NCBI GenBank assembly: GCA_963695875.1
Contig: CAVOID010000003.1
Span: 128,001-192,000, forward strand
DNA from: an uncultured delta proteobacterium
GTDB taxonomy: Bacteria > Desulfobacterota > Syntrophia > Syntrophales > UBA2185
Length of the DNA stretch: 64,000 bases
Direction of reading: 5' to 3'
The position numbers and the translations under genes were made by a program. The notes under the pieces are model-generated. The model saw only the letters and a program-made list of their open reading frames with translations, made no database searches and was not told the origin of the DNA. Shown one piece after another: positions 26,491-37,640 of this stretch. Each line of letters opens with the position of its first letter. Positions within the stretch are counted from its first letter, which is position 1.

Positions 26491-26757
26491 CTAAGTCTTA
26501 TATTTGACGGTTGTAGAGGGATGCGTTATTTTTCGTTCGTGATCCATCATTATTTTTAGCTCTCTAATGTCATCATTTAACTTCGAGAACGCCTTCTCGT
26601 ACTCGCCCTTGCACTCAGAATTTAAAGACGGATTCATCAACACCAACTTCATGCCGGTTCTAATTATCTCGGCTTCTTCGAGTGAACGTTTCAAGTGTTC
26701 CATCTTTTTCAATCCAGTGCGTCCTTCTATCGTCATAAATTTCTTGCCGTTTTGCAA
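26491..26757 (-). CDS. Hypothetical small helical protein
   Basis: ORF fills an intergenic gap; no motif recognised. Confidence 0.4.
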   Translation of the reverse strand: MQNGKKFMTIEGRTGLKKMEHLKRSLEEAEIIRTGMKLVLMNPSLNSECKGEYEKAFSKLNDDIRELKIMMDHERKITHPSTTVKYKT

Positions 26758-26858
26758 AAAGCAGGAATCGAAAATGTTACTTCAATCTTTTAGTATTATT
26801 TTTTCGCTTCCTGCAGAATTTCATAGACCAAATCCGGTCTTGTAACCTGCACATAAAA

Positions 26859-27041
26859 TCATTTGAGTCTTATACAGTCTTTTTTCCACAGACAATCCTC
26901 CGCACATGTGTTCCTCGTATGAAAACATGGCGAATAGCCTTCTCTTAGCTGAATATCCCGGATGATGTCCCCCTTTTTGCGGCCACCATTCGAGTCAACA
27001 CCCCAGGTCTTTGCAATTTTACGAATCTCTTGAATATTCAT
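26859..27041 (-). CDS. Small SAP/Rho-N-like helix domain protein with C-terminal Cys cluster
   Basis: MNIQEIRKIAK..KKGDIIRDIQLREG..CF..C...CLWKKDC; AAGGAGG SD. Confidence 0.75.
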   Translation of the reverse strand: MNIQEIRKIAKTWGVDSNGGRKKGDIIRDIQLREGYSPCFHTRNTCAEDCLWKKDCIRLK

Positions 27042-27155
27042 TTCATGATCCTCCTTTTCATTCGAGCGATTTTCTTTCCGCAAACAATCGGTTTTTAAGC
27101 AAGGTTCTTGTTAAAAGGCATGCTGATTAGCCGTTATTTTGAATTTACAGGAAAT

Positions 27156-27171
27156 TGCACTAACTATGCCA
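27156..27171 (-). promoter_or_regulatory. Sigma-54 (-24/-12) promoter
   Basis: Minus strand TGGCAT-AGTTA-GTGCA with correct GG-N10-GC spacing. Confidence 0.6.
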
Positions 27172-27294
27172 TATTGGAAGGATAAAGGTAGGCAGTACTG
27201 TATAAACAGAAAAAACCCGCCAATTATAGCTACTTAGACAAAAGAGACTGGCGCTGCATCGCTTTATTGGAATAATGCAAGTAACTGAAATGAA

Positions 27295-27310
27295 TGTCAA
27301 TTAATTGACA
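27295..27310. promoter_or_regulatory. Perfect 16-bp palindrome, candidate enhancer-binding-protein site
   Basis: TGTCAATTAATTGACA about 125 bp upstream of the sigma-54 site. Confidence 0.55.
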
Positions 27311-27357
27311 ATTTTATGACAACCCGTCAGCTATGCCATTGGCGGGACAATAAACAG

Positions 27358-27393
27358 GAAGAGCGCCCATTCGCTTAAAATGGACGCTCTCCC
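27358..27393 (-). terminator. Hairpin downstream of ilvD
   Basis: GAGCGCCCATT / AATGGACGCTC inverted repeat. Confidence 0.55.
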
Positions 27394-27426
27394 GATAAAG
27401 CACAGGTGAGTTGTATTATAACAGTA

Positions 27427-29090
27427 TCAGTCTTTCAAGATGGCGCCGGTGCTGGCTGAGGTAACCATTCTGGCATACCGGACGAGGTAACCGCTGTTAA
27501 TCGCCGGTGGCTGGGGTCTGAATTTCGCCTGTCTTCGCTTTAATTCCTCCGGGTTGACCTTGAGGGTAATTGTCTTTTTCGGAATATCGATGGCGATAAC
27601 ATCACCCTCCTTTACTAGGCCGATGGGGCCTCCTTCAGCAGCCTCCGGAGAGATGTGTCCGATAGCGGCGCCGCGTGTACCACCGCTGAACCTTCCATCC
27701 GTCAGTAGGGCCACCGTCGTATCGAGTCCCATCCCGGCTATTGCTGATGTCGGTCCCAGCATCTCCCGCATACCGGGTCCTCCTTTCGGACCCTCATAGC
27801 GGATTACGACAATATCTCCCGGTTTGATCTTCCCGCCGAGGATGGAAGCAATCGCATCGTCTTCGGCATCGAAGATGCGGGCCTTGCCTTCATTGACGAG
27901 CATATTTTCTGCGACAGCGGACTGCTTCACCACGGCACCGTCAGGCGCCAGATTTCCTCTGAGGATGGCAATGCCCCCTTCTTTCGTATATGGTTTGTCC
28001 AGAGGCCTGATGACCGAATTGTTTAGTACCCTGGCGTCTTTCAGATTCTTGCCCACGGTTTTCCCTGTCACCGTCATGGCATTCAGATTAATGACACCGA
28101 GTTGACTTATTTCCTTCATTACAGCCTGGACACCGCCTGCCATGTCCAGGTCTTCTAAGTGGTGCTGTCCTGCGGGACTTAGTTTGCAGATATTGGGCGT
28201 TTTTTTGCTGATCTCATTGAACATGTCCAAATCCAGCTTGATTCCCGCTTCATGGGCAATGGCAGGAATATGCAGGACCGTATTGGTCGAACACCCCAGG
28301 GCCATGTCCACGGCGATGGCATTTTTAAAGGCTTTCAAAGTGGCTATATTCCTCGGACGGATGTCTTTCTTGAGGAGTTCCATGATTTTCATGCCGGCCT
28401 GCTTTGCCAGGCGCTGCCGGGCCGCTTGAACAGCGGGTACCGTGCCATTTCCGGGAAGGCCGAGACCAAGGGCCTCGGTGACGCAGTTCATGGAATTTGC
28501 CGTGTACATACCGGAACAGGATCCACAGCCCGGGCAGGCACAGTCTTCCAGAGCCTTGAGATATTGCTCCTTCATCTGGCGGGATTTTACCTTTCCCACG
28601 CCCTCGAAGACGCTGATGAGGTCCACAGTTTTCCCTTCCAGGGTTCCTGCCATCATAGGACCACCGCTGATGAAGATAGTAGGGATGTTCAGGCGCAGTG
28701 CCGCCATCAGCATTCCGGGGATGATCTTATCGCAGTTGGGGATCATGACCAGGGCATCAAAGGGATGGGCCATGACCATAACCTCGATGGAATCGGCAAT
28801 GAGCTCCCGGCTGGCAAGGGAGTATTTCATGCCGGTATGCCCCATGGCAATGCCGTCACATACGCCGATGACGGGAAATTCGACAGGTGTGCCCCCCGCC
28901 ATGCGGATGCCCTGACTTTCACATCTTCGGTTATGATATCTAAATGAATATGGCCGGGGACGATTTCATTGGCGGAGTTCACCACGCCGATCAACGGCTG
29001 TGCGATTTCTTCATCGGTATACCCCATGGCCTTGAACAGAGATCTGTGGGGTGCCCGCTCCAATCCTTTTTTCATCAGGTCGCTTCTCAT
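27427..29090 (-). CDS. ilvD: Dihydroxy-acid dehydratase (frameshift near 28910)
   Basis: [33 protein letters not shown] and TDGRFSG. Confidence 0.97.
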
Positions 29091-29129
29091 GCTTTCCTCC
29101 TGCTTTCCTCCTGTTTTTTTACAATGCCG

Positions 29130-30177
29130 CTATTTTTTTCTCCGTTCCGGCCTTAAAGATCGAACTACTGCACCTGCCAGCCACATCTCGCTGTTTTTCA
29201 TGGTGTCGAGTTCCTTCTGCAGTTTCTCCCTGTAGTCGGGAGCAGAGTTGACTTCCAGGACAATCGCGGTTTCTTTGCCGGAGGCCACTCTGTCATATAA
29301 TGCATCGAAAACAGGTGCTACAGCATCACGGAACCTATTTTTCCAGTCCAAGGGCGCCTCGCTGGGCCGTTGTACTGCAATTGGCATACATCCAGTCCAT
29401 GCCGTTTTGAGCGACGAGCGGCATGAGGCTCTGGGTCAGCTCTTCGACGGTTTCATTGAAGGCTTCGCTCGGACTGTGGCCGTGTTTGCGAAGGACATTA
29501 TACTGGGCTTCCAGGACACCGGCCAGACATCCCATGAGGACGCCACGCTCACCTGTGAGATCGCTGTAAACTTCTTTTTCAAAGGTGGTCGGGAACAGAT
29601 ATCCCGAACCGATGGCAATACCAACGGCAAGGGTTCTTTCCAGAGCCTTTCCCGTGTAATCCTGGAAAACGGCGTAGCTGGAATTGATGCCGCTACCGGC
29701 AAGAAAGTTGTCGCGCACGGTGCGTCCTGCACCTTTTGGCGCTACCAGAATAACATCGATGTCGGCGGGAGGAATCACACCGGTCTGCTCTTTGTAAACG
29801 ATGGAGAATCCGTGAGAAAAATAGAGGGCCTTCCCTTTCGTCAGGTGTGGTTTGAGTTCCGGCCACATGGCCTTCTGGCCCGCATCGGACAGCAGGTACT
29901 GGATAATGGTGCCGCGTTTGGCCGCTTCTATTGGCGGAAACAGGGTCTCACCGGGGATAAAGCCTTCATCGATGGCCTTTTGCCAGTTGTATTCTCCCTC
30001 GCCGACGATACAGCGGATTCCGTTATCTTTCATATTCAAGGCCTGTCCCCGTCCCTGAACACCGTAACCGATGACGGCAACTATTTCATCTTTAAGCACC
30101 TCCCGTGCCTTTTCCAGTGTAAATTCCTCAGAGGTGACAACCTCTTCCATGACTCCGCCAATGTTGATTTTTGGCAT
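29130..30177 (-). CDS. ilvC: Ketol-acid reductoisomerase, Ilv5-like (frameshift near 29350)
   Basis: GYGVQG, FSHGF, VAPKG, SDLTGERG and NCSTTAQRGAL. Confidence 0.95.
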
Positions 30178-30257
30178 ATAAAGTACCTCCTCACTTTGAT
30201 GATTAAATTATTAAAAGTGCGATATAGCTTGTACTTTAAAACACTCTTGATCTGCGA

Positions 30258-30743
30258 TTATTTATGACGCTCCAAGGCGATAACTCCCGTTCTCGTAAAA
30301 TCATCCATACCCATTTTTTCTAAGAGAGCCAGGGCATTATCGATGTCTTCTTTATCGCCCGTGACTTCCAGAATACAGATATCAGCATCCATGCTTACAA
30401 TTTTCCACTTGAGTGTGTCAATAGTTTGCATGATTTTTCCTTGATTCGCCTCCGTAAATTTCATCCTGACCAGTATCATTTCCCTACAGGCTGAATCACT
30501 GCGCGTCAAATCCTTGACTTCGAGGACATCGATGATTTTGGTCAGCTGCTTTTCAAGTTTGATGACGGTTTCCCGATTACCGAGGGTTGTAATAATGATT
30601 CTGGTAATATCAGGATTCCTGGTGATGTTTGCCGAGATGCTTTCAATGTTGAACCCCCGTCCGCTGAAGGTTCCGGCAATCCTTGCCAGGACGTCAGGTT
30701 TGTTGTTCACTAGGATTGAAATCGTGTTTTCTTTAATTTCCAT
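30258..30743 (-). CDS. ilvN: Acetolactate synthase regulatory subunit (ACT); Asp at the conserved Gly
   Basis: [37 protein letters not shown]. Confidence 0.9.
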
Positions 30744-30782
30744 AATAAGTTGAATCCTCTCTCAATATTTTTTGATGTGAAA

Positions 30783-30912
30783 CCCTTGAAAATATGTGGT
30801 GTGTGCCATTCCGCGGGGAGAAGCAACGAGGAATCTTTAAGATCCCTTCCTTCCGTCGGTACAAGGATTTGTACTTTAGATCGAAATGACACAGTGCGCG
30901 TTTTTCAAAGGG
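30783..30912. repeat. REP/MITE-like palindromic element
   Basis: Outer CCCTTGAAAA / TTTTCAAAGGG and inner GTGCCATTCC / GAAATGACAC inverted repeats. Confidence 0.55.
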
Positions 30913-30935
30913 CACTAAATATCTTTTAATATGTC

Positions 30936-32628
30936 TTACTTGCTCAAGACCATCTCTGTCAGCGCCGCACCTGGTGAAACCATAGGATATACACCTTCCT
31001 CTGGTTCGACATGGAAATCCATTATCACTGTCTTTGAGCGTATCAAGACCTTGTTGTAATGTGGCCTCTACCTCTTCGGGACGGGTTGCCCGCAGGCCGA
31101 CAGCATCGTAGGCTTCAGCCAGTTTCACAAAATCAGGGACATTGCGTATATTACTATGAGAATACCGTTTCCCATAAAATAACTCCTGCCACTGGCGAAC
31201 CATGCCCAGGAAGCCATTGTTCAATATGACTATTTTAACCGGAAGGTCGTAATTGACAGCCGTTGCCAGCTCCTGAATGTTCATCTGAATACTTCCGTCA
31301 CCGGCAATATCCACAACAACCCTGTCAGGACAAGCAACCTGTGCACCTATTGCTGCCGGGAAATCCGAAGCCCATTGTACCCAGACCGCCCGACGAAATG
31401 AAGGAGTTCGGATAATCAAAATGATAGAATTGTGCAGCCCACATCTGGTTCTGTCCCACCTCTGTCGTTATGATTGCCTTGCCCTTTGTGAGGCGGTACA
31501 GTGTATCAACCACGTGCTGGGGTTTTATTTTGTCACCCTGGCAGTATGTCATGGGTGCGTGCTTTTTCCATGCCGCTATTTGATCGAGCCATGCCTTTGT
31601 CTGTGCTTCGGGGATTACAAATTTATCATCGGCAATCCACTTGTTGAGAAGCTGTAATACAGGCTTACAGTCACTGGCAATCGACAGATGTGTCTTTACA
31701 AATTTGTCGATTGACGCCGGATCAATGTCAATGTGGATAACCTTGGCATGCGGCGCAAAGGCATCCAGCTTTGAAGTGACACGGTCGTCAAACCGCATGC
31801 CGAGGGCAATCATCAGGTCGCAATTACTGATGGCCATGTTAGCATAATAGGTGCCGTGCATCCCCGGCATGCCAAGCCAGTGGGGGTCTGTGGCAGGAAA
31901 TGCCCCGAGCCCCATCAATGTTGAGGTAATGGGGATGTTTAGCGCTTTCACAAATGTTCTCAATTCATCCCAGGCCCGGCCTAGCATTACACCACCACCC
32001 GAGATAATGAGCGGTTTTTCAGACTTCCTGATCATGTTAAGGGCTTTTTCGCACTCCTTTTCGACAGAAGTCTTTTTACCGTTATTAGGAAGGCTCAATG
32101 CCCAGGATATATCTTTCTCATCTATGAGAGCCCGTGTGACATCCTTGGGAATATCGATCAGGACAGGTCCCGGACGCTCCTGAGCGGGCTATATAGAAAG
32201 CCTCTCTGACGGTTCGTCCAAGGTCTTCAATCCGCCTGACCAGAAAATTGTGCTTGGTGCATGGTCTTGTAATACCGGTGATGTCCACTTCCTGAAAGGC
32301 ATCGCCGCCGATCAGTGATGTCGCTACCTGTCCGGTCAGTACGACAACCGGAATGGAATCCATAAAGGCATTGGCAATACCGGTGACCGTATTGGTTGCT
32401 CCAGGTCCCGATGTCACCAGGCAGACACCAACCTTGCCGGAAGCCCTTGCGTACCCATCAGCCGCGTGTATGGCACCCTGTTCATGGCGGACTAATATAT
32501 TCTTGATATTTGCTCCTGTACAGTTCATCAAAAATGTCGAGTACGGCACCACCCGGAAAACCGAAGATGGTATCAACTTTCTCTTGCTCCAAGGCATTAA
32601 AAAGAACTTGTGCTCCTGTTAATTTCAC
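30936..32628 (-). CDS. ilvB: Acetolactate synthase large subunit, isozyme A (several frameshifts)
   Basis: GTG start [40 protein letters not shown] and MVRQWQ. Confidence 0.93.
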
Positions 32629-32688
32629 TTGTAACCCCCCCTTTTTTGATTCTTGGTATCTTTGTAAGTCTTTGTTCAGAATTTCTCC

Positions 32689-32722
32689 AAAAAAAAACCG
32701 TTACCTTTGGCTGGTAACGGTT
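32689..32722 (-). terminator. Attenuator terminator of the ilvB-A leader
   Basis: AACCGTTACC-agccaaa-GGTAACGGTT followed by a U-run. Confidence 0.9.
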
Positions 32723-32755
32723 CTTAGTTGCAAAATATATGCTAAGCGCAAACCA

Positions 32756-32830
32756 TCAGCCAGCCCCTTTCCGGAAGGGAATAATTATCCCGATAATTAT
32801 GGCGATGGTTACGACATTTGGTTCAAACAT
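32756..32830 (-). CDS. Ile-rich leader peptide MFEPNVVTIAIIIGIIIPFRKGAG
   Basis: GAGG SD, 24 codons including 7 Ile and 2 Val, followed by antiterminator and terminator. Confidence 0.88.
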   Translation of the reverse strand: MFEPNVVTIAIIIGIIIPFRKGAG

Positions 32831-32896
32831 GTAATTAATCCTCAATTAGTAATTAATCATTAACAGGCTCTTCTAACATTGTCAAGAATATTTTTT

Positions 32897-33409
32897 TCAG
32901 GGTTTTCCTTTTGGTCTATTCCGTTGCATGGCAATTGATCCGGTTCTGTTCGTTTCTTCCACACCAAAGGGTTGAAAGAATTTTAAGACTGCTGCCGTTT
33001 CGTCCTGATGGCCTGTTATTTCCAGGATAAAATAATCGGGGGTCATAGTGACTATTCTGCATCCGAACATTTCAATCGCCCGCAGGACTTCGGAATGTGC
33101 TCCTTCTTTTATAGTAACACCTATTAGCATCAGTTCTCTTTGAATGAAGGCCTGTCCAGAGAGATCGGAGACTTCTATAACGTCGACAAGTTTGTCCAGT
33201 TGTTTTTTTATTTTTTCGGTAAAATCGGGATCCGATTCGCTCGTCAGCGTGATTCTCGAGACATCGGGGTTCGTGGTTTCTGCCACACAGAGGCTTTTGA
33301 TGTTGTATCCATGACGGCCAAATACACCCCCTACGCGGGACAGCACGCCCGGTTGGTTATTGACTAAAATGGAAATGGTCTGTTCCTGTTCACGTATTTT
33401 TCTAAACAT
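32897..33409 (-). CDS. ilvN: Acetolactate synthase regulatory subunit (canonical)
   Basis: ISILVNNQPGVLSRVGGVFGRHGYNIKSL; NRTGSIAM. Confidence 0.92.
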   Translation of the reverse strand: MFRKIREQEQTISILVNNQPGVLSRVGGVFGRHGYNIKSLCVAETTNPDVSRITLTSESDPDFTEKIKKQLDKLVDVIEVSDLSGQAFIQRELMLIGVTIKEGAHSEVLRAIEMFGCRIVTMTPDYFILEITGHQDETAAVLKFFQPFGVEETNRTGSIAMQRNRPKGKP

Positions 33410-33472
33410 AGTATGTCCTCCGGAGTATATCGATCAATCAAGCAAGTCTGACGGCACTGTAAAAAGCCCATG

Positions 33473-35147
33473 TTAAGCAAGTCTTTCATACATCATCTCG
33501 ATGTTTGAGCATCCGGGCGGTATGATGGGATACACATAATTTTCCGGATCGATCACAGCTTCCAGCAGAAACGGACCATCAGAGTTGGCCATTGCTTCAA
33601 TGCCGCGTTTGGGGATCTTCTTCCACGGCAATCCTGCAACCCTGTATACCGAAGCCCCGGGCGACGGCGACGAAATCAACGTTTCTTCCCAGATCGATGG
33701 TGTTAAAGCGGCCATTGTAGAAATGATGCTGGATCTGGCGGATCATCCCCAGGTGGCCGTTATTGATGACAATAATCTTTATCGGCAGATTGTAGTAGCC
33801 GATTGTCGCCAGTTCCTGGATATTCATGTAGAACCCACCGTCACCCGTGATAGCTACGACGGCCCTTTCCGGTGTGCCGACCTTGACGCCGATTGAAGCG
33901 GGTAGGCTGAATCCCATAGTTCCCATCCCGCCGCTGGTGATTAGGCTGCGAGGGCCTCTCGGCCTCCATGTACGGATTGTCCATATCTGATTGAGTCCCA
34001 CGTCTGCGGTCACCGTTGTTTCCCTGGGCATGGCATCCTGAATCATGCGGATGAAATCTCCCGCCTGTCCGCACCCGCTGTCGGAAAATTTTTGTACTAT
34101 CGCATCCCTCTCCGTATCGATTCTCTGCAGCCACTCCGACTTTCCCCTCTCATCAATGAGGGGCAGCAAAGCCGCGAGTGTTTCATTAATATCACCGATG
34201 TAGGGTAGATTGATCTTGATGCTCTTGCCGATTGATGTGGGATCAATATCGATCTGGGCGATTTTTGCCAGAGGCGCGAATTCATCGATTTGCGCAGTAC
34301 TGCGGTCCGAAAAACGGGTACCCACAGCAAGGATAAAATCGCTCTGATGCACCATTTTGTTTGCCAGCTCGTTTCCGTGAGTTCCGATCAAACCCAGGTT
34401 ATATCCATTGGTGGAATCGACGGAACCAACGCCCATCATTGTTGTGACGAAGGGGATTTTTGCCTTTTCTATAAGCTCACGGATCAGGTGAAATGAATTG
34501 CTCAGTTTGACTCCTCCACCGATAATGAGAACCGGTCTTTCGCTCTGATTTAAAGCCCTGGCAATTTTCTCCAGTTGTTCCGGGTCTTCCACCACCCTGC
34601 CGTTCGTTTTCAATGCAGAGGCCGATTGTTTTTCCGCCGGCTCGCATTTCGATGCCAGAATGTCACGAGGCAGATCAACGAGGACAGGGCCTGGTCGCCC
34701 GGTCTTGGCCAGTTCAAAGGCCTGTCTAAGCGAGGGTGCAATATTGTTCACGTCGTGCACCTGGTAGCTGTGTTTGGTGATCGGCATTGTGATCCCGATA
34801 ATGTCCGTTTCCTGAAAAGCGTCCTGACCAAGGAGGCCTGTGCTCACCTGCGCGGTCAGGGCGACCATTGGTGTTGAGTCCATATAGGCTGTGGCAATAC
34901 CGGTTACCAGGTTGGTAGCTCCCGGTCCCGATGTTGCGAGGCATACACCTACCTTTCCGGTGGCGCGGGCGTAGCCGTCGGCGGCATGTGCCGCTGCCTG
35001 TTCGTGCCGCATGAGATAATGTCGGATCTGGCTATCCGTCAGGCGGTCGTGTAAGGGCAGTGTGTTTGCCCCGGGGTATCCGAAGATAACATCCACCCCT
35101 TCCTCTCTGAGGATTTGTATAATGATATCTGCACCGATGGTTTCCAT
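33473..35147 (-). CDS. ilvB: Acetolactate synthase large subunit, isozyme B (frameshift near 33610)
   Basis: [24 protein letters not shown] and GDGG..NN. Confidence 0.92.
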
Positions 35148-35185
35148 ATTTCTTTTCCTTCAATTTTCTTAATTCTTTGGACAAT

Positions 35186-35220
35186 AAAAAAGCCGCAAAT
35201 TCTTCTGAACGGCGGCTTTT
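35186..35220 (-). terminator. Second tandem terminator in the ilvB-B leader
   Basis: AAAAGCCGC ... GCGGCTTTTTT. Confidence 0.75.
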
Positions 35221-35227
35221 CAAATAT

Positions 35228-35260
35228 AAAAAAAGCCGCGGGTTTGCGGGGCCCGCGGCT
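35228..35260 (-). terminator. Attenuator terminator of the ilvB-B leader
   Basis: AGCCGCGGG-ccccgcaaa-CCCGCGGCT followed by a U-run. Confidence 0.9.
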
Positions 35261-35281
35261 CTTCGTTTCTATGTCAATCCA

Positions 35282-35368
35282 TCACAGAAACCGAGCAGCG
35301 GTCCCCCTGAGTACAAGTACTACCACTACGGCTACGATTAGAATGTTGCTCAGTTTGTGATGGGTCAT
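35282..35368 (-). CDS. Val/Leu-rich leader peptide MTHHKLSNILIVAVVVVLVLRGTAARFL
   Basis: 28 codons with an ILIVAVVVVLVL run, followed by antiterminator and terminator. Confidence 0.88.
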   Translation of the reverse strand: MTHHKLSNILIVAVVVVLVLRGTAARFL

Positions 35369-35399
35369 TTATTTACCATTATTCACGAATTATTGAAAA

Positions 35400-35427
35400 A
35401 TATTATATTAAAATTTGAATTTGTCAA
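35400..35427 (-). promoter_or_regulatory. Sigma-70 promoter for the ilv leader
   Basis: TTGACA-N16-TAATAT on the minus strand. Confidence 0.55.
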
Positions 35428-35597
35428 GTATTTTCTGAAGTATTCATTTTTTGACTTGTTTTTCCCTTGAGAGATTGATTGGCTGATTCAAGACGTTTCT
35501 TTAGCAACTCTACCGGCAGTCGTTTATGCCTTGGCTGATCTTTGGTTCAAGGCAGAGACTTGAAATGGCAAAGTAAACTCTATTTACTCAACGTATT

Positions 35598-37640
35598 TTA
35601 ACGGGAGGCATCCTTACTCTCTTTCTTAAGATCCTCCTGCGTATCGTCACTCCCTACGGGTACTGCGCCGATTGCAGTTGTACCCTCAAGGAAACTTTCA
35701 AATAAGGCTCCTTCAGTGGACCGTGTTGCCGGAATGCCTGTGTGCGGATCTACCTTGATGAAAACAATTCCGTCTGGAACGGGAAACACTTCTACTGGCT
35801 TGCCTTGCACGGCTTTTTCCATGAAATAGAGCCATATAGGCGCTGCAGCCCTGCCTCCCACTTCGTTCTTACCAAGGGATCTTTCCTGGTCGAAGCCTAC
35901 CCACACTCCAGCCACCAGTGAAGGTGTAAAGCCTATGAACCACGCATCTCGCATGTCATCCGTTGTTCCCGTCTTCCCGGCTACAGGCCTGCCGATGCTT
36001 TTTACCCTTCTGCCTGTTCCGCTTTCCACAACATCCTGCATGACATATGATGAAATGAAGGCTATGCGGGGGTCGATGACCTGTTCGTCTATTACCTGAG
36101 CCTCTTCAAAGACCTGACCTGTTCGATCAACGATTTTTTTAATAAAAAATGGGGCGACCCTTTTACCCTGATTTGCCAGAACGCCATAACCCCTGACCAT
36201 TTCCTGAAGGGTGACACCGGACGTTCCCAATGCCAGGGTTAGGTTCTTTGTTAGGGGAGAAGTAATTCCCATATTGGTGGCATAATCAGTCGCGTAATCA
36301 ATACCGATCTCGTGAAGGACTTTTATTGTAATGATATTCCGTGACTGGACAAGTGCGTTTCTAAGAGTAGTCGGCCCATTAAATTTTCCATCAAAGTTTT
36401 TAGGTTTCCAGAAACCATCCGGTGATGACTTGTCTTCATAGATAATGGGAGCATCAAGGATCCGTGTTGATGGCGTCATTCCTTTGTCGAAAGCGGCTGT
36501 ATATATGAATGGCTTAAAAGCCGAGCCCGCCTGTCTCCTTGACTGGGTCGCACGGTTGAATTCACTTTTTTTGAAATCCCTTCCTCCGATCATGGCCTTG
36601 ATAGCACCAGTCTTCGCCTCCATACATAAAAGGGATCCCTGAACAACTCCCTTCTCATATCCCTCACGGGCTTCCAATTCTTGAAGGCCCTTTTCCACCG
36701 CATCCCGTGCCGCTTTTTGCATGTCTATATTAAGGGTGGTATATACCTCAAGACCCTCTCTGTACAGAACTTCGCTGCCGTATTTTTCCATAATGTACTT
36801 TCGTACATTTTCGATAAAATAAGGGGCTATTTTTTCCTTAGGTCTGATAGATTTGAGTCTGATTGGCGTTGCGAATGCCCGTTCTCTTTCTGCCCGGGTA
36901 ATATATTCGTCATCAACCATCCTGTCCAGTACATAGGCCTGTCTCTGGCGGGCTTTGTCGAAATGGAGAAAAGGTGAGTAACTGCTGGGTGCCTTGGGAA
37001 GGCCGGCCAGAAGTGCGGCCTCAGGCAGGGTCAGGTATTTGGCACTTTTACCAAAATATCCCTCAGATGCCGCCTCGATGCCGTAGGTGCCGTGCCCCAG
37101 ATATATGTGGTTCAGGTAGAGGCTCATAATTTCATCTTTGGTAAGATATTTGTCAATTTTATAGGCTAAGATGGCCTCTTTAATCTTTCTCATGTACTTT
37201 TTTTCTGAAGAGAGATAGAGAGATTTGGCCACCTGTTGTGTTATGGTGCTGCCTCCCTGGACAATGCGCCCTGCTTCGATATTCCTATAAAATGCCCTCG
37301 CAATGCTCAGCAGGTCGAGGCCCGTGTGCTGATAAAATCTCGCATCTTCTGCAGCCACAAAGGCCTGAATAACCACCTTGGGAACTTCGGAAAGCCGAAT
37401 TATTTTTCTGTCTTCCAGGAAAAACTCGTCGATGAGGTCATTATTGTCCGCATACACCCTAGTGGCAATGCTGGGACGGTAGTCCTTTAAGGCGGCAATG
37501 CTCGGCATTTCACTGAGAAGGATGTAGTAAACAATACTGCTTCCGATAACGCTCAGAATGAGGCAACACAGTATGGTCACCAACAATATTGTCCCGAGTC
37601 CGGAGTATTTTAAATACATTTTTTTATTCTTATGAGTCAT
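35598..37640 (-). CDS. Penicillin-binding protein 1A family
   Basis: EDARFY, QGGSTITQQ, GSAFKP, SRN and KTG motifs. Confidence 0.93.
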   Translation of the reverse strand: MTHKNKKMYLKYSGLGTILLVTILCCLILSVIGSSIVYYILLSEMPSIAALKDYRPSIATRVYADNNDLIDEFFLEDRKIIRLSEVPKVVIQAFVAAEDARFYQHTGLDLLSIARAFYRNIEAGRIVQGGSTITQQVAKSLYLSSEKKYMRKIKEAILAYKIDKYLTKDEIMSLYLNHIYLGHGTYGIEAASEGYFGKSAKYLTLPEAALLAGLPKAPSSYSPFLHFDKARQRQAYVLDRMVDDEYITRAERERAFATPIRLKSIRPKEKIAPYFIENVRKYIMEKYGSEVLYREGLEVYTTLNIDMQKAARDAVEKGLQELEAREGYEKGVVQGSLLCMEAKTGAIKAMIGGRDFKKSEFNRATQSRRQAGSAFKPFIYTAAFDKGMTPSTRILDAPIIYEDKSSPDGFWKPKNFDGKFNGPTTLRNALVQSRNIITIKVLHEIGIDYATDYATNMGITSPLTKNLTLALGTSGVTLQEMVRGYGVLANQGKRVAPFFIKKIVDRTGQVFEEAQVIDEQVIDPRIAFISSYVMQDVVESGTGRRVKSIGRPVAGKTGTTDDMRDAWFIGFTPSLVAGVWVGFDQERSLGKNEVGGRAAAPIWLYFMEKAVQGKPVEVFPVPDGIVFIKVDPHTGIPATRSTEGALFESFLEGTTAIGAVPVGSDDTQEDLKKESKDASR

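Follow-up and report, generated by a model that had tools for sequence, protein, structure and literature searches.

The synthesis of valine, leucine and isoleucine begins with one shared step, catalysed by acetohydroxyacid synthase (AHAS). The enzyme is a classic model of ACT-domain allostery, a target for herbicides and antimicrobials and, in industry, the chief point at which valine and leucine production is steered. Valine binds at the interface between ACT domains, and in canonical small (regulatory) subunits a glycine lies there, directly before helix alpha1. The subject here is a small subunit, IlvN-A, that carries an aspartate at this place and is encoded, together with a second subunit that keeps the glycine (IlvN-B), in a stretch of 64,000 nucleotides (the window) of contig CAVOID010000003.1, from an uncultured delta proteobacterium of the order Syntrophales.

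In E. coli K-12 the small subunit residue at this column and a specificity residue of the catalytic subunit are combined differently in the three isozymes, being Gly (IlvH) with Trp (IlvI) in AHAS III, Gly (IlvN) with Gln (IlvB) in AHAS I and Glu (IlvM) with Trp (IlvG) in AHAS II; K-12 is valine-sensitive and its ilvG is a pseudogene. The conserved catalytic subunit Trp is described as the key 2-ketobutyrate site, with AHAS II and III preferring 2-ketobutyrate, AHAS I with its Gln showing no preference and a Trp-to-Leu change abolishing the preference (PMC5727371, section 3.3). According to the same section, changing the conserved Gly renders E. coli AHAS III valine-insensitive, and this Gly is not kept in the small subunit of AHAS II, the valine-insensitive isozyme (PMC5727371, introduction; PMC8406616). 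Section 3.3 of PMC13158618 assigns the greatest impact to G14, placed ‘upstream of helix 1’, together with its two successors. There, at high valine, as much as 80% activity is retained by the M. thermautotrophicus variants V21D/L22F and G20D/V21D/L22F, of which the triple mutant has 25% of wild-type activity. Feedback-resistant alleles include ilvH G14D+S17F and E. coli ilvN G20D/V21D/M22F (bioRxiv 10.1101/2020.12.01.406439), and the C. glutamicum resistant allele is the triple G20D/I21D/I22F (PMC8709942, Table 1). The first-pass annotation of the window had tied its aspartate to this literature, rightly as far as the Gly change in AHAS III is concerned, although G20D alone is not the C. glutamicum allele given in that table.

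The Asp17 residue and the IlvN-A protein

Three features of the window carry the comparison, with coordinates counted from its first letter.

30258..30743, minus strand: ilvN-A, Asp-type AHAS small (regulatory) subunit of 161 aa, ACT then ALS_ss_C domain
30693..30695, minus strand: Asp17 of IlvN-A (GAC), column of E. coli IlvH Gly14, N-cap position before helix alpha1
32897..33409, minus strand: ilvN-B, Gly-type AHAS small subunit of 170 aa, Gly21 (GGC) at 33347-33349

At 30693-30695 the plus strand of the window reads GTC, and so codon 17 of ilvN-A is GAC. IlvN-A and IlvN-B are 37% identical and align without gaps, with D17 opposite G21 in the IlvN-B motif NNQPGVLSR. In a direct alignment with IlvH translated from E. 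coli K-12 D17 falls on G14, and in a phmmer search against PDB sequences it lies opposite the glycine of E. coli IlvH 2f1f (enesGalsr) and opposite Gly in 2pc6, 2fgc, both repeats of A. thaliana 6u9h and yeast 6u9d. The substitution of the valine-site glycine read from the first-pass annotation, and the contrast it drew between Asp17 and the Gly of the neighbouring paralogue, are both borne out by these alignments and by the GAC and GGC codons.

Family scores, domain order, fold and the ilv gene context all place IlvN-A among the AHAS small subunits. It scores 135.9 bits against TIGR00119 (cut-off 56.9) and 149.5 bits against NF008864 (cut-off 119), with PF22629 over residues 8-75 (64.2 bits) and PF10369 over residues 87-159 (65.3 bits); IlvN-B scores 164.9 bits against TIGR00119 and has the same ACT plus ALS_ss_C architecture. 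An AlphaFold2 model of IlvN-A built on a 60-sequence alignment has a mean predicted local distance difference test score (pLDDT) of 94.5, with a strand at residues 4-13 and a helix, alpha1, at 18-27 that D17 directly precedes. Superposed on valine-bound 6vz8_G, the regulatory subunit of A. thaliana, the model gives a template modelling (TM) score of 0.93 and a root mean square deviation of 1.4; on 2f1f_A the TM score is 0.92 and on 2pc6_A 0.92-0.93, with the solved small subunits overall at 0.90-0.93. What the protein lacks is the canonical valine-site glycine of the IlvH G14 type, Asp17 standing at that column. IlvN-A is a natural Gly-to-Asp variant of a known AHAS regulatory subunit, fixed across the order Syntrophales.

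With E. coli IlvH (2F1F), T. maritima 2FGC and N. europaea 2PC6 IlvN-A shares length and architecture, and as for IlvH its gene directly follows one for a TIGR00118 large subunit and the equivalents of N11 and N29 are kept. It differs from IlvH in the Asp at the Gly14 column, invariant in its clade, in clade-specific residues at the IlvH columns L22, Q25, A36, R45, E58, Q59 and K90, and in that Asp-type proteins score low for the phylum against TIGR00119, at 123-136 bits versus about 190-226. The engineered alleles (ilvH G14D with or without S17F, ilvN G20D with its two neighbours, M. thermautotrophicus G20D/V21D/L22F) change the same column to the same residue. However they are recent, sit in Gly-type backgrounds, usually carry extra substitutions and can cost activity (25% left), whereas in IlvN-A the two following residues remain V-L, the Asp is fixed and co-adapted across an order and the paralogues differ as GGC and GAC.

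Distribution, descent and catalytic partners of the Asp type

Among the best 120 of 3142 matches in a protein search, made up of the query and 119 clusters that are 64-100% identical to it, all 120 have the Asp, within a near-invariant motif NN[KR]PDV[LM]ARIAGTFSG. When 178 domains drawn from the 150 best 50%-identity cluster representatives were aligned, the 169 residues at the column were G in 154, D in 10, N in 3 and S in 2, with 9 gaps, and all ten Asp rows were the nearest relatives of the query. At loci retrieved through protein similarity, with no use of the motif, Asp was present in 41/41 Asp-type hits (codons GAC 27, GAT 14; three genomes are counted twice). Of the 41 genomes of the order that were searched, the window's own included, 37 have an Asp-type copy, two (G028 and G029) have the Gly type only and two (G031 and G032) have no small subunit copy. 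Asp as a peculiarity of a single isozyme, as first annotated, has to be given up, since the residue is invariant in an order-wide, operon-linked clade that often supplies the sole small subunit; the Asp itself stands.

Within the phylum the Asp state was met in this order only, in the samples examined. A strict DNA pattern for the Asp motif matched 124/151 genomes in an even sample of the order, covering 19/24 families, and 14/401 genomes in an even sample of the phylum, all 14 within the order and none among the 387 genomes of other orders; the reversed pattern used as a control gave no matches in either sample. IlvN is present in 119/121 sampled genomes of the phylum, and Gly stands in 41/41 IlvN homologues examined from its other orders, 11 of which are divergent or second copies. 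A scan of 185,579 species genomes gave at least 119 loci with the Asp motif, and among those listed the titles read Syntrophus, Smithella, Syntrophaceae, Smithellaceae, Syntrophales, Syntrophobacterales, Deltaproteobacteria or Thermodesulfobacteriota, the single exception being one metagenome-assembled genome titled ‘Pseudomonadota bacterium’. Beyond the loci listed, the Asp type may also occur in other phyla.

Other departures were met in these surveys. Five representatives passing TIGR00119 have a residue other than Gly at the column, Asn in P0159, P0177 and P0181 and Ser in P0222 and P0243, and may be further natural effector-site variants in other lineages. In another family of the phylum three genomes (G093, G129 and G052; loci L218, L219 and L220, with L222-L224) have a second, very divergent IlvN close to a canonical copy on the same contig, in which the helix alpha1 region is odd (CENKPGVTANV.N.ISRRGFNITSF) and the glycine is kept; it represents a further small subunit duplication, independent of the first.

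In a tree of 40 non-redundant Asp-type sequences and 73 Gly-type representatives, made with the column masked, the Asp-type sequences form one split without intruders (support 0.977). In a second tree, again with the column masked, to which nine Gly-type copies from the same order were added and which was rooted on E. coli IlvH, the order's Gly-type copies and IlvN-B are the sister group of the Asp clade (support 0.991 for the joint node and 0.97 for the Asp clade). Because the order's own Gly-type copies are sister to the Asp clade, the data fit both copies having arisen by duplication at the order's base or close to it, and for the same reason IlvM and the Asp clade are independent in origin. 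The second ilvN copy lies about 2.5 kb upstream in 19/21 searched genomes of the window's family (the window's own excluded), the exceptions being G010, with its second copy on another contig, and G012 (82% complete), with a single copy. Wherever the column of this second copy was looked at (the window, the complete relative G007 and nine further genomes) the residue is Gly. G028 and G029 (L238, L239, L052, L049) have the Gly type only, with a partner large subunit that has Leu or Ile in place of Trp, and an Asp-type copy was not found in them with the queries used; these lineages seem to have retained the other duplicate. One further genome, G036 (L034, L045, L051), has two Asp-type copies on separate short contigs in addition to a Gly-type copy, and the extra copy may reflect a further duplication, a strain mixture or contamination.

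The neighbouring ilv genes are as follows.

33476..35210, minus strand: ilvB-B, catalytic partner of IlvN-B, one frameshift between 33606 and 33652
30936..32628, minus strand: ilvB-A, catalytic partner of IlvN-A, four 1-nt insertions near 32508/32512, 32178, 31361 and 31039, intact in relatives
29145..30177, minus strand: ilvC (ketol-acid reductoisomerase), directly downstream of ilvN-A, frameshift near 29351
27427..29090, minus strand: ilvD (dihydroxy-acid dehydratase), frameshift near 28914
31189..31191, minus strand: specificity Trp of IlvB-A (TGG, motif GMVRQWQ), column of E. coli IlvI W484
33732-33734, minus strand: Ile of IlvB-B (ATC, motif GMIRQIQ) at the place of the specificity Trp

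The gene order of the window's family is two tandem pairs, ilvB-B, ilvN-B, ilvB-A and ilvN-A, followed by ilvC and ilvD, and it is intact in G007. The names ilvC and ilvD are presumptive, given by operon position; ilvC is 95% identical to its 348-aa G007 orthologue. The pieces of ilvB-A were mapped by tblastn with the intact G007 orthologue. G007, G024 and G030 have an unbroken operon ilvB-ilvN(D)-ilvC-ilvD, which in the latter two is the sole arrangement. Five genomes that are 97-100% complete and come from five families each have exactly one TIGR00119 hit, of the Asp type, and one TIGR00118 large subunit over the cut-off, directly upstream and scoring 811-835 bits. Being the sole small subunit in these five near-complete genomes argues that the Asp type would be functional as an activator, and for its being the main or housekeeping AHAS small subunit of the order. 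Against TIGR00118 (cut-off 538) the IlvB-A orthologue scores 797.5 bits and the IlvB-B orthologue 659.8 bits, and by this measure the partner of the Asp type is the more canonical of the two large subunits.

The catalytic partners have changed the other way round. Trp is found in 68/68 partner loci of the Asp type in which the motif was found (12/80 loci being without the motif in the fetched flank), while in the 20 relatives examined the large subunit whose gene precedes a Gly-type ilvN has I in 16, M in 2, L in 2 and W in none. Elsewhere in the phylum Trp is paired with Gly in 27/27 loci with the motif found, of 30. Because the other orders pair Trp with Gly, this combination would be the ancestral AHAS state, from which one copy later changed its Gly and the other its Trp.

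Set beside the E. coli isozymes, the IlvN-A/IlvB-A pair recalls AHAS II in that the Gly column is acidic (Glu15 in IlvM, Asp17 in IlvN-A), the partner has the GMVRQWQ Trp in both IlvG and IlvB-A, and a Gly-type isozyme coexists with it. Yet IlvM is an 87-aa single ACT domain without a C-terminal domain and has lost the equivalents of Asn11 and Asn29 (F and H), whereas IlvN-A is a two-domain protein of 161 aa that has kept them; against the IlvM model NF008362 it reaches 33.5 bits with the cut-off at 68, and the resemblance is one of possible working and not of membership. The IlvB-B/IlvN-B pair is likewise comparable with AHAS I, a valine-sensitive isozyme, both keeping Gly and replacing the specificity Trp, although the replacement is Gln in IlvB and Ile, Met or Leu in the partners of the Gly type, and E. 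coli IlvN is a 96-aa single-ACT protein in contrast to the full two-domain IlvN-B.

Valine feedback and competing explanations

On balance we lean towards an AHAS with IlvN-A that is free of canonical valine inhibition. That expectation, voiced already in the first-pass annotation, is a plausible one, and it is made more credible by the Trp and non-Trp pairing of the catalytic partners. In the proposed mechanism the side chain of Asp17 would cap the N-terminus of helix alpha1, and its carboxylate would fill or repel the place of the carboxylate of the ligand, so that IlvN-A would still activate IlvB-A with canonical valine inhibition no longer passed on. An ancestral Trp plus Gly AHAS would have been duplicated at or near the base of the order, with copy A keeping the Trp for 2-ketobutyrate specificity and changing Gly to Asp, and copy B keeping the Gly and losing the Trp. 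AHAS-B may then have stayed under valine control, oriented to pyruvate condensation (acetolactate), and valine could throttle isozyme B without starving isoleucine synthesis via isozyme A; many families would later have dispensed with copy B, leaving the Asp-type enzyme as their only AHAS. The two copies would thereby share out their work much as AHAS II and AHAS I do in E. coli. A more far-reaching view, which is possible if short of likely, is that the tandem ilvBN duplicates sub-functionalised by reciprocal single-site changes and re-invented the logic of AHAS II and AHAS I, and that the Asp-only lineages either have no valine feedback at the first common step or have a rebuilt, extremely conserved ACT pocket that senses a different effector, which would make a new regulatory class.

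A textbook feedback-resistance change is the wild type of a whole bacterial order, co-adapted and in an enzyme that is probably fully active, and so a natural experiment on the switching off or retuning of ACT sites. The clade may also provide ready-made small subunits for engineering that are probably valine-insensitive, and the reciprocal Trp loss in the sister isozyme is a clean example, independent in its evolution, of how isozymes divide their labour. In methanogenic sediments and digesters, slow-growing syntrophs dominate the turnover of propionate, fatty acids and alkanes, and the Asp type is a clue to how these organisms control their amino-acid supply.

Several observations weigh against a simple loss of valine control, and some of them would suit a site that has been retuned and is not dead. 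Across the 40 non-redundant Asp-type sequences, with identity to the query down to about 43%, 16/161 positions are invariant, and 11 of the 16 (N14, P16, D17, V18, L19, A20, R21, G24, G30, N32 and I33) fall within residues 14-33, the loop, helix alpha1 and the start of beta2, so that the effector region is the most conserved part of IlvN-A and not a decaying one. N14 and N32, at the columns of IlvH N11 and N29, are kept, whereas insensitive IlvM, which is truly without regulation, has F and H there. Clade-specific residues accompany the Asp elsewhere in the ACT domain: the IlvH A36 column has N in 31 and D in 9 of the Asp types versus G in 53, A in 11 and S in 6 of the Gly types, the R45 column has K in 37 Asp types versus R in 65 Gly types and the Q59 column has K or R in 38 Asp types versus Q in 68 Gly types, with further such residues at the columns of E58, Q25, L22 and K90. 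These changes look like remodelling and not loss, and the pattern is no less suited to a rebuilt site that still works than to a dead one. Changes at the columns of A36 and Q59 would coincide with resistance sites reported by Mendel 2001 and Kaplun 2006, which is not counted as evidence here; an open-literature search for IlvH N11A, N29H, T34I, A36V and Q59L as resistance changes returned nothing. Further, many complete genomes have the Asp type only, and a dead site would leave them with no end-product control at the AHAS step. Asp together with the co-varying N/D39, K48 and K/R62 could then have rebuilt the effector pocket for valine with altered affinity, isoleucine, leucine or another metabolite, with AHAS-A still allosterically controlled. 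We think such a retuned site rather unlikely all the same, as every Asp tested at the column in the reports cited above abolishes or weakens valine inhibition and no data here point to an alternative ligand. The conservation around helix alpha1 could equally be attributed to contacts with, and activation of, the catalytic subunit, ACT helices being described as acting on the catalytic dimer (PMC12994207). Loss of canonical valine inhibition must also be set against the nature of the laboratory evidence, which in the sources cited comes from Gly-type backgrounds and mostly from double or triple mutants, one of which, the M. thermautotrophicus triple, has 25% activity (PMC13158618). E. coli AHAS III has Trp plus Gly and yet is valine-sensitive, and so Trp alone is no predictor of insensitivity. 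The capping mechanism, moreover, is one that we infer from a ligand-free monomer model, and a literature search on Syntrophus acetolactate synthase gave no paper on the AHAS of this clade.

Asp17 might instead be neutral for regulation, a mere swap of helix N-cap for Gly in an AHAS that is still valine-inhibited, and this we hold to be improbable. N (3) and S (2), the other rare occupants of the column among genuine small subunits, are like D good N-cap residues, which together with the place of D17 directly before helix 18-27 suggests a structural requirement. However a neutral residue would be expected to toggle, and what is seen is Gly in 154/169 aligned residues, kept even in very divergent second copies, and a D that never reverts in the clade and never appears outside it in the samples examined; in the publications cited, laboratory Gly-to-Asp changes are also not neutral. 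That the GAC codon is a sequencing error, or that the IlvBN-A pair is a pseudogene, is a proposition already contradicted and with next to no probability left. The assembly is error-prone, with ilvB-A of the window in five frame pieces and ilvC, ilvD and ilvB-B in two pieces each, which is what such a proposition would draw upon. Asp is, on the other hand, invariant across hundreds of independent assemblies, so the base-call error allowed for in the first-pass annotation is not upheld, and the Asp is confirmed in the assemblies of relatives. Contigs of three independent metagenome runs (X1 to X3) span the codon region with differences at 30675 and 30713, and among the best-supported differences listed there is none at 30693-30695. 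One base at each of the ilvB-A and ilvC junctions is absent from contigs of these runs, and the genes are intact in G007.

Across window positions 27427-35210 there are seven single-base frameshift junctions, near 28914, 29351, 31039, 31361, 32178, 32508-32512 and 33606-33652. At five of the seven the independent contigs are without one base (29352, 31039, 31361, 32178 and 32508/32512), that at 29352 in ilvC being absent from both the X1 and X3 contigs; the ilvD and ilvB-B junctions fall outside the stretch covered by the contig comparison. Because the independent contigs are without the extra bases and the ilv orthologues of G007 are intact, the split genes of the window most likely owe their breaks to spurious 1-nt insertions in the assembly. 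Such errors would also lower the completeness estimate of the assembly (82.6%). The insertion error rate in the ilv region seems to be about 1 per kb, and gene calls elsewhere in this genome need the same caution.

Intergenic features of the ilv region

Two intergenic features of the region complete the list.

27393-27357, minus strand: terminator-like hairpin after ilvD, 16-bp stem
30744..30935, minus strand: ilvB-A/ilvN-A spacer, with a hairpin-forming insert of about 120 nt (approximately 30807-30926)

An Rfam scan of 26500-36500 at E<=1, covering leaders, T-boxes and riboswitches, gave two chance-level hits far under their gathering scores, and in a promoter and terminator scan the counts were not above those of shuffled sequence (12 vs 10.1 and 13 vs 9.8). 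The two sites 35427-35400 and 32885-32856, like the hairpin 27393-27357, are to be taken as tentative.

The ATG of ilvN-A is preceded by a Shine-Dalgarno-like GAGAGAGGA. The spacer upstream is about 195 nt long in the window versus 32 nt in G007, and apart from three short partial matches of 75-86% identity no copies of 30744-30940 were found in the window's own genome. The predicted fold is a long, imperfect hairpin (-46 kcal/mol, z -1.91) whose inverted ends are CCCUUUGAAAAA and UUUUCAAGGG, and the X3 contig of a related strain jumps from 30806 to 30927, with about 120 nt of the spacer missing, so that what lies here looks like a small polymorphic palindromic insert.

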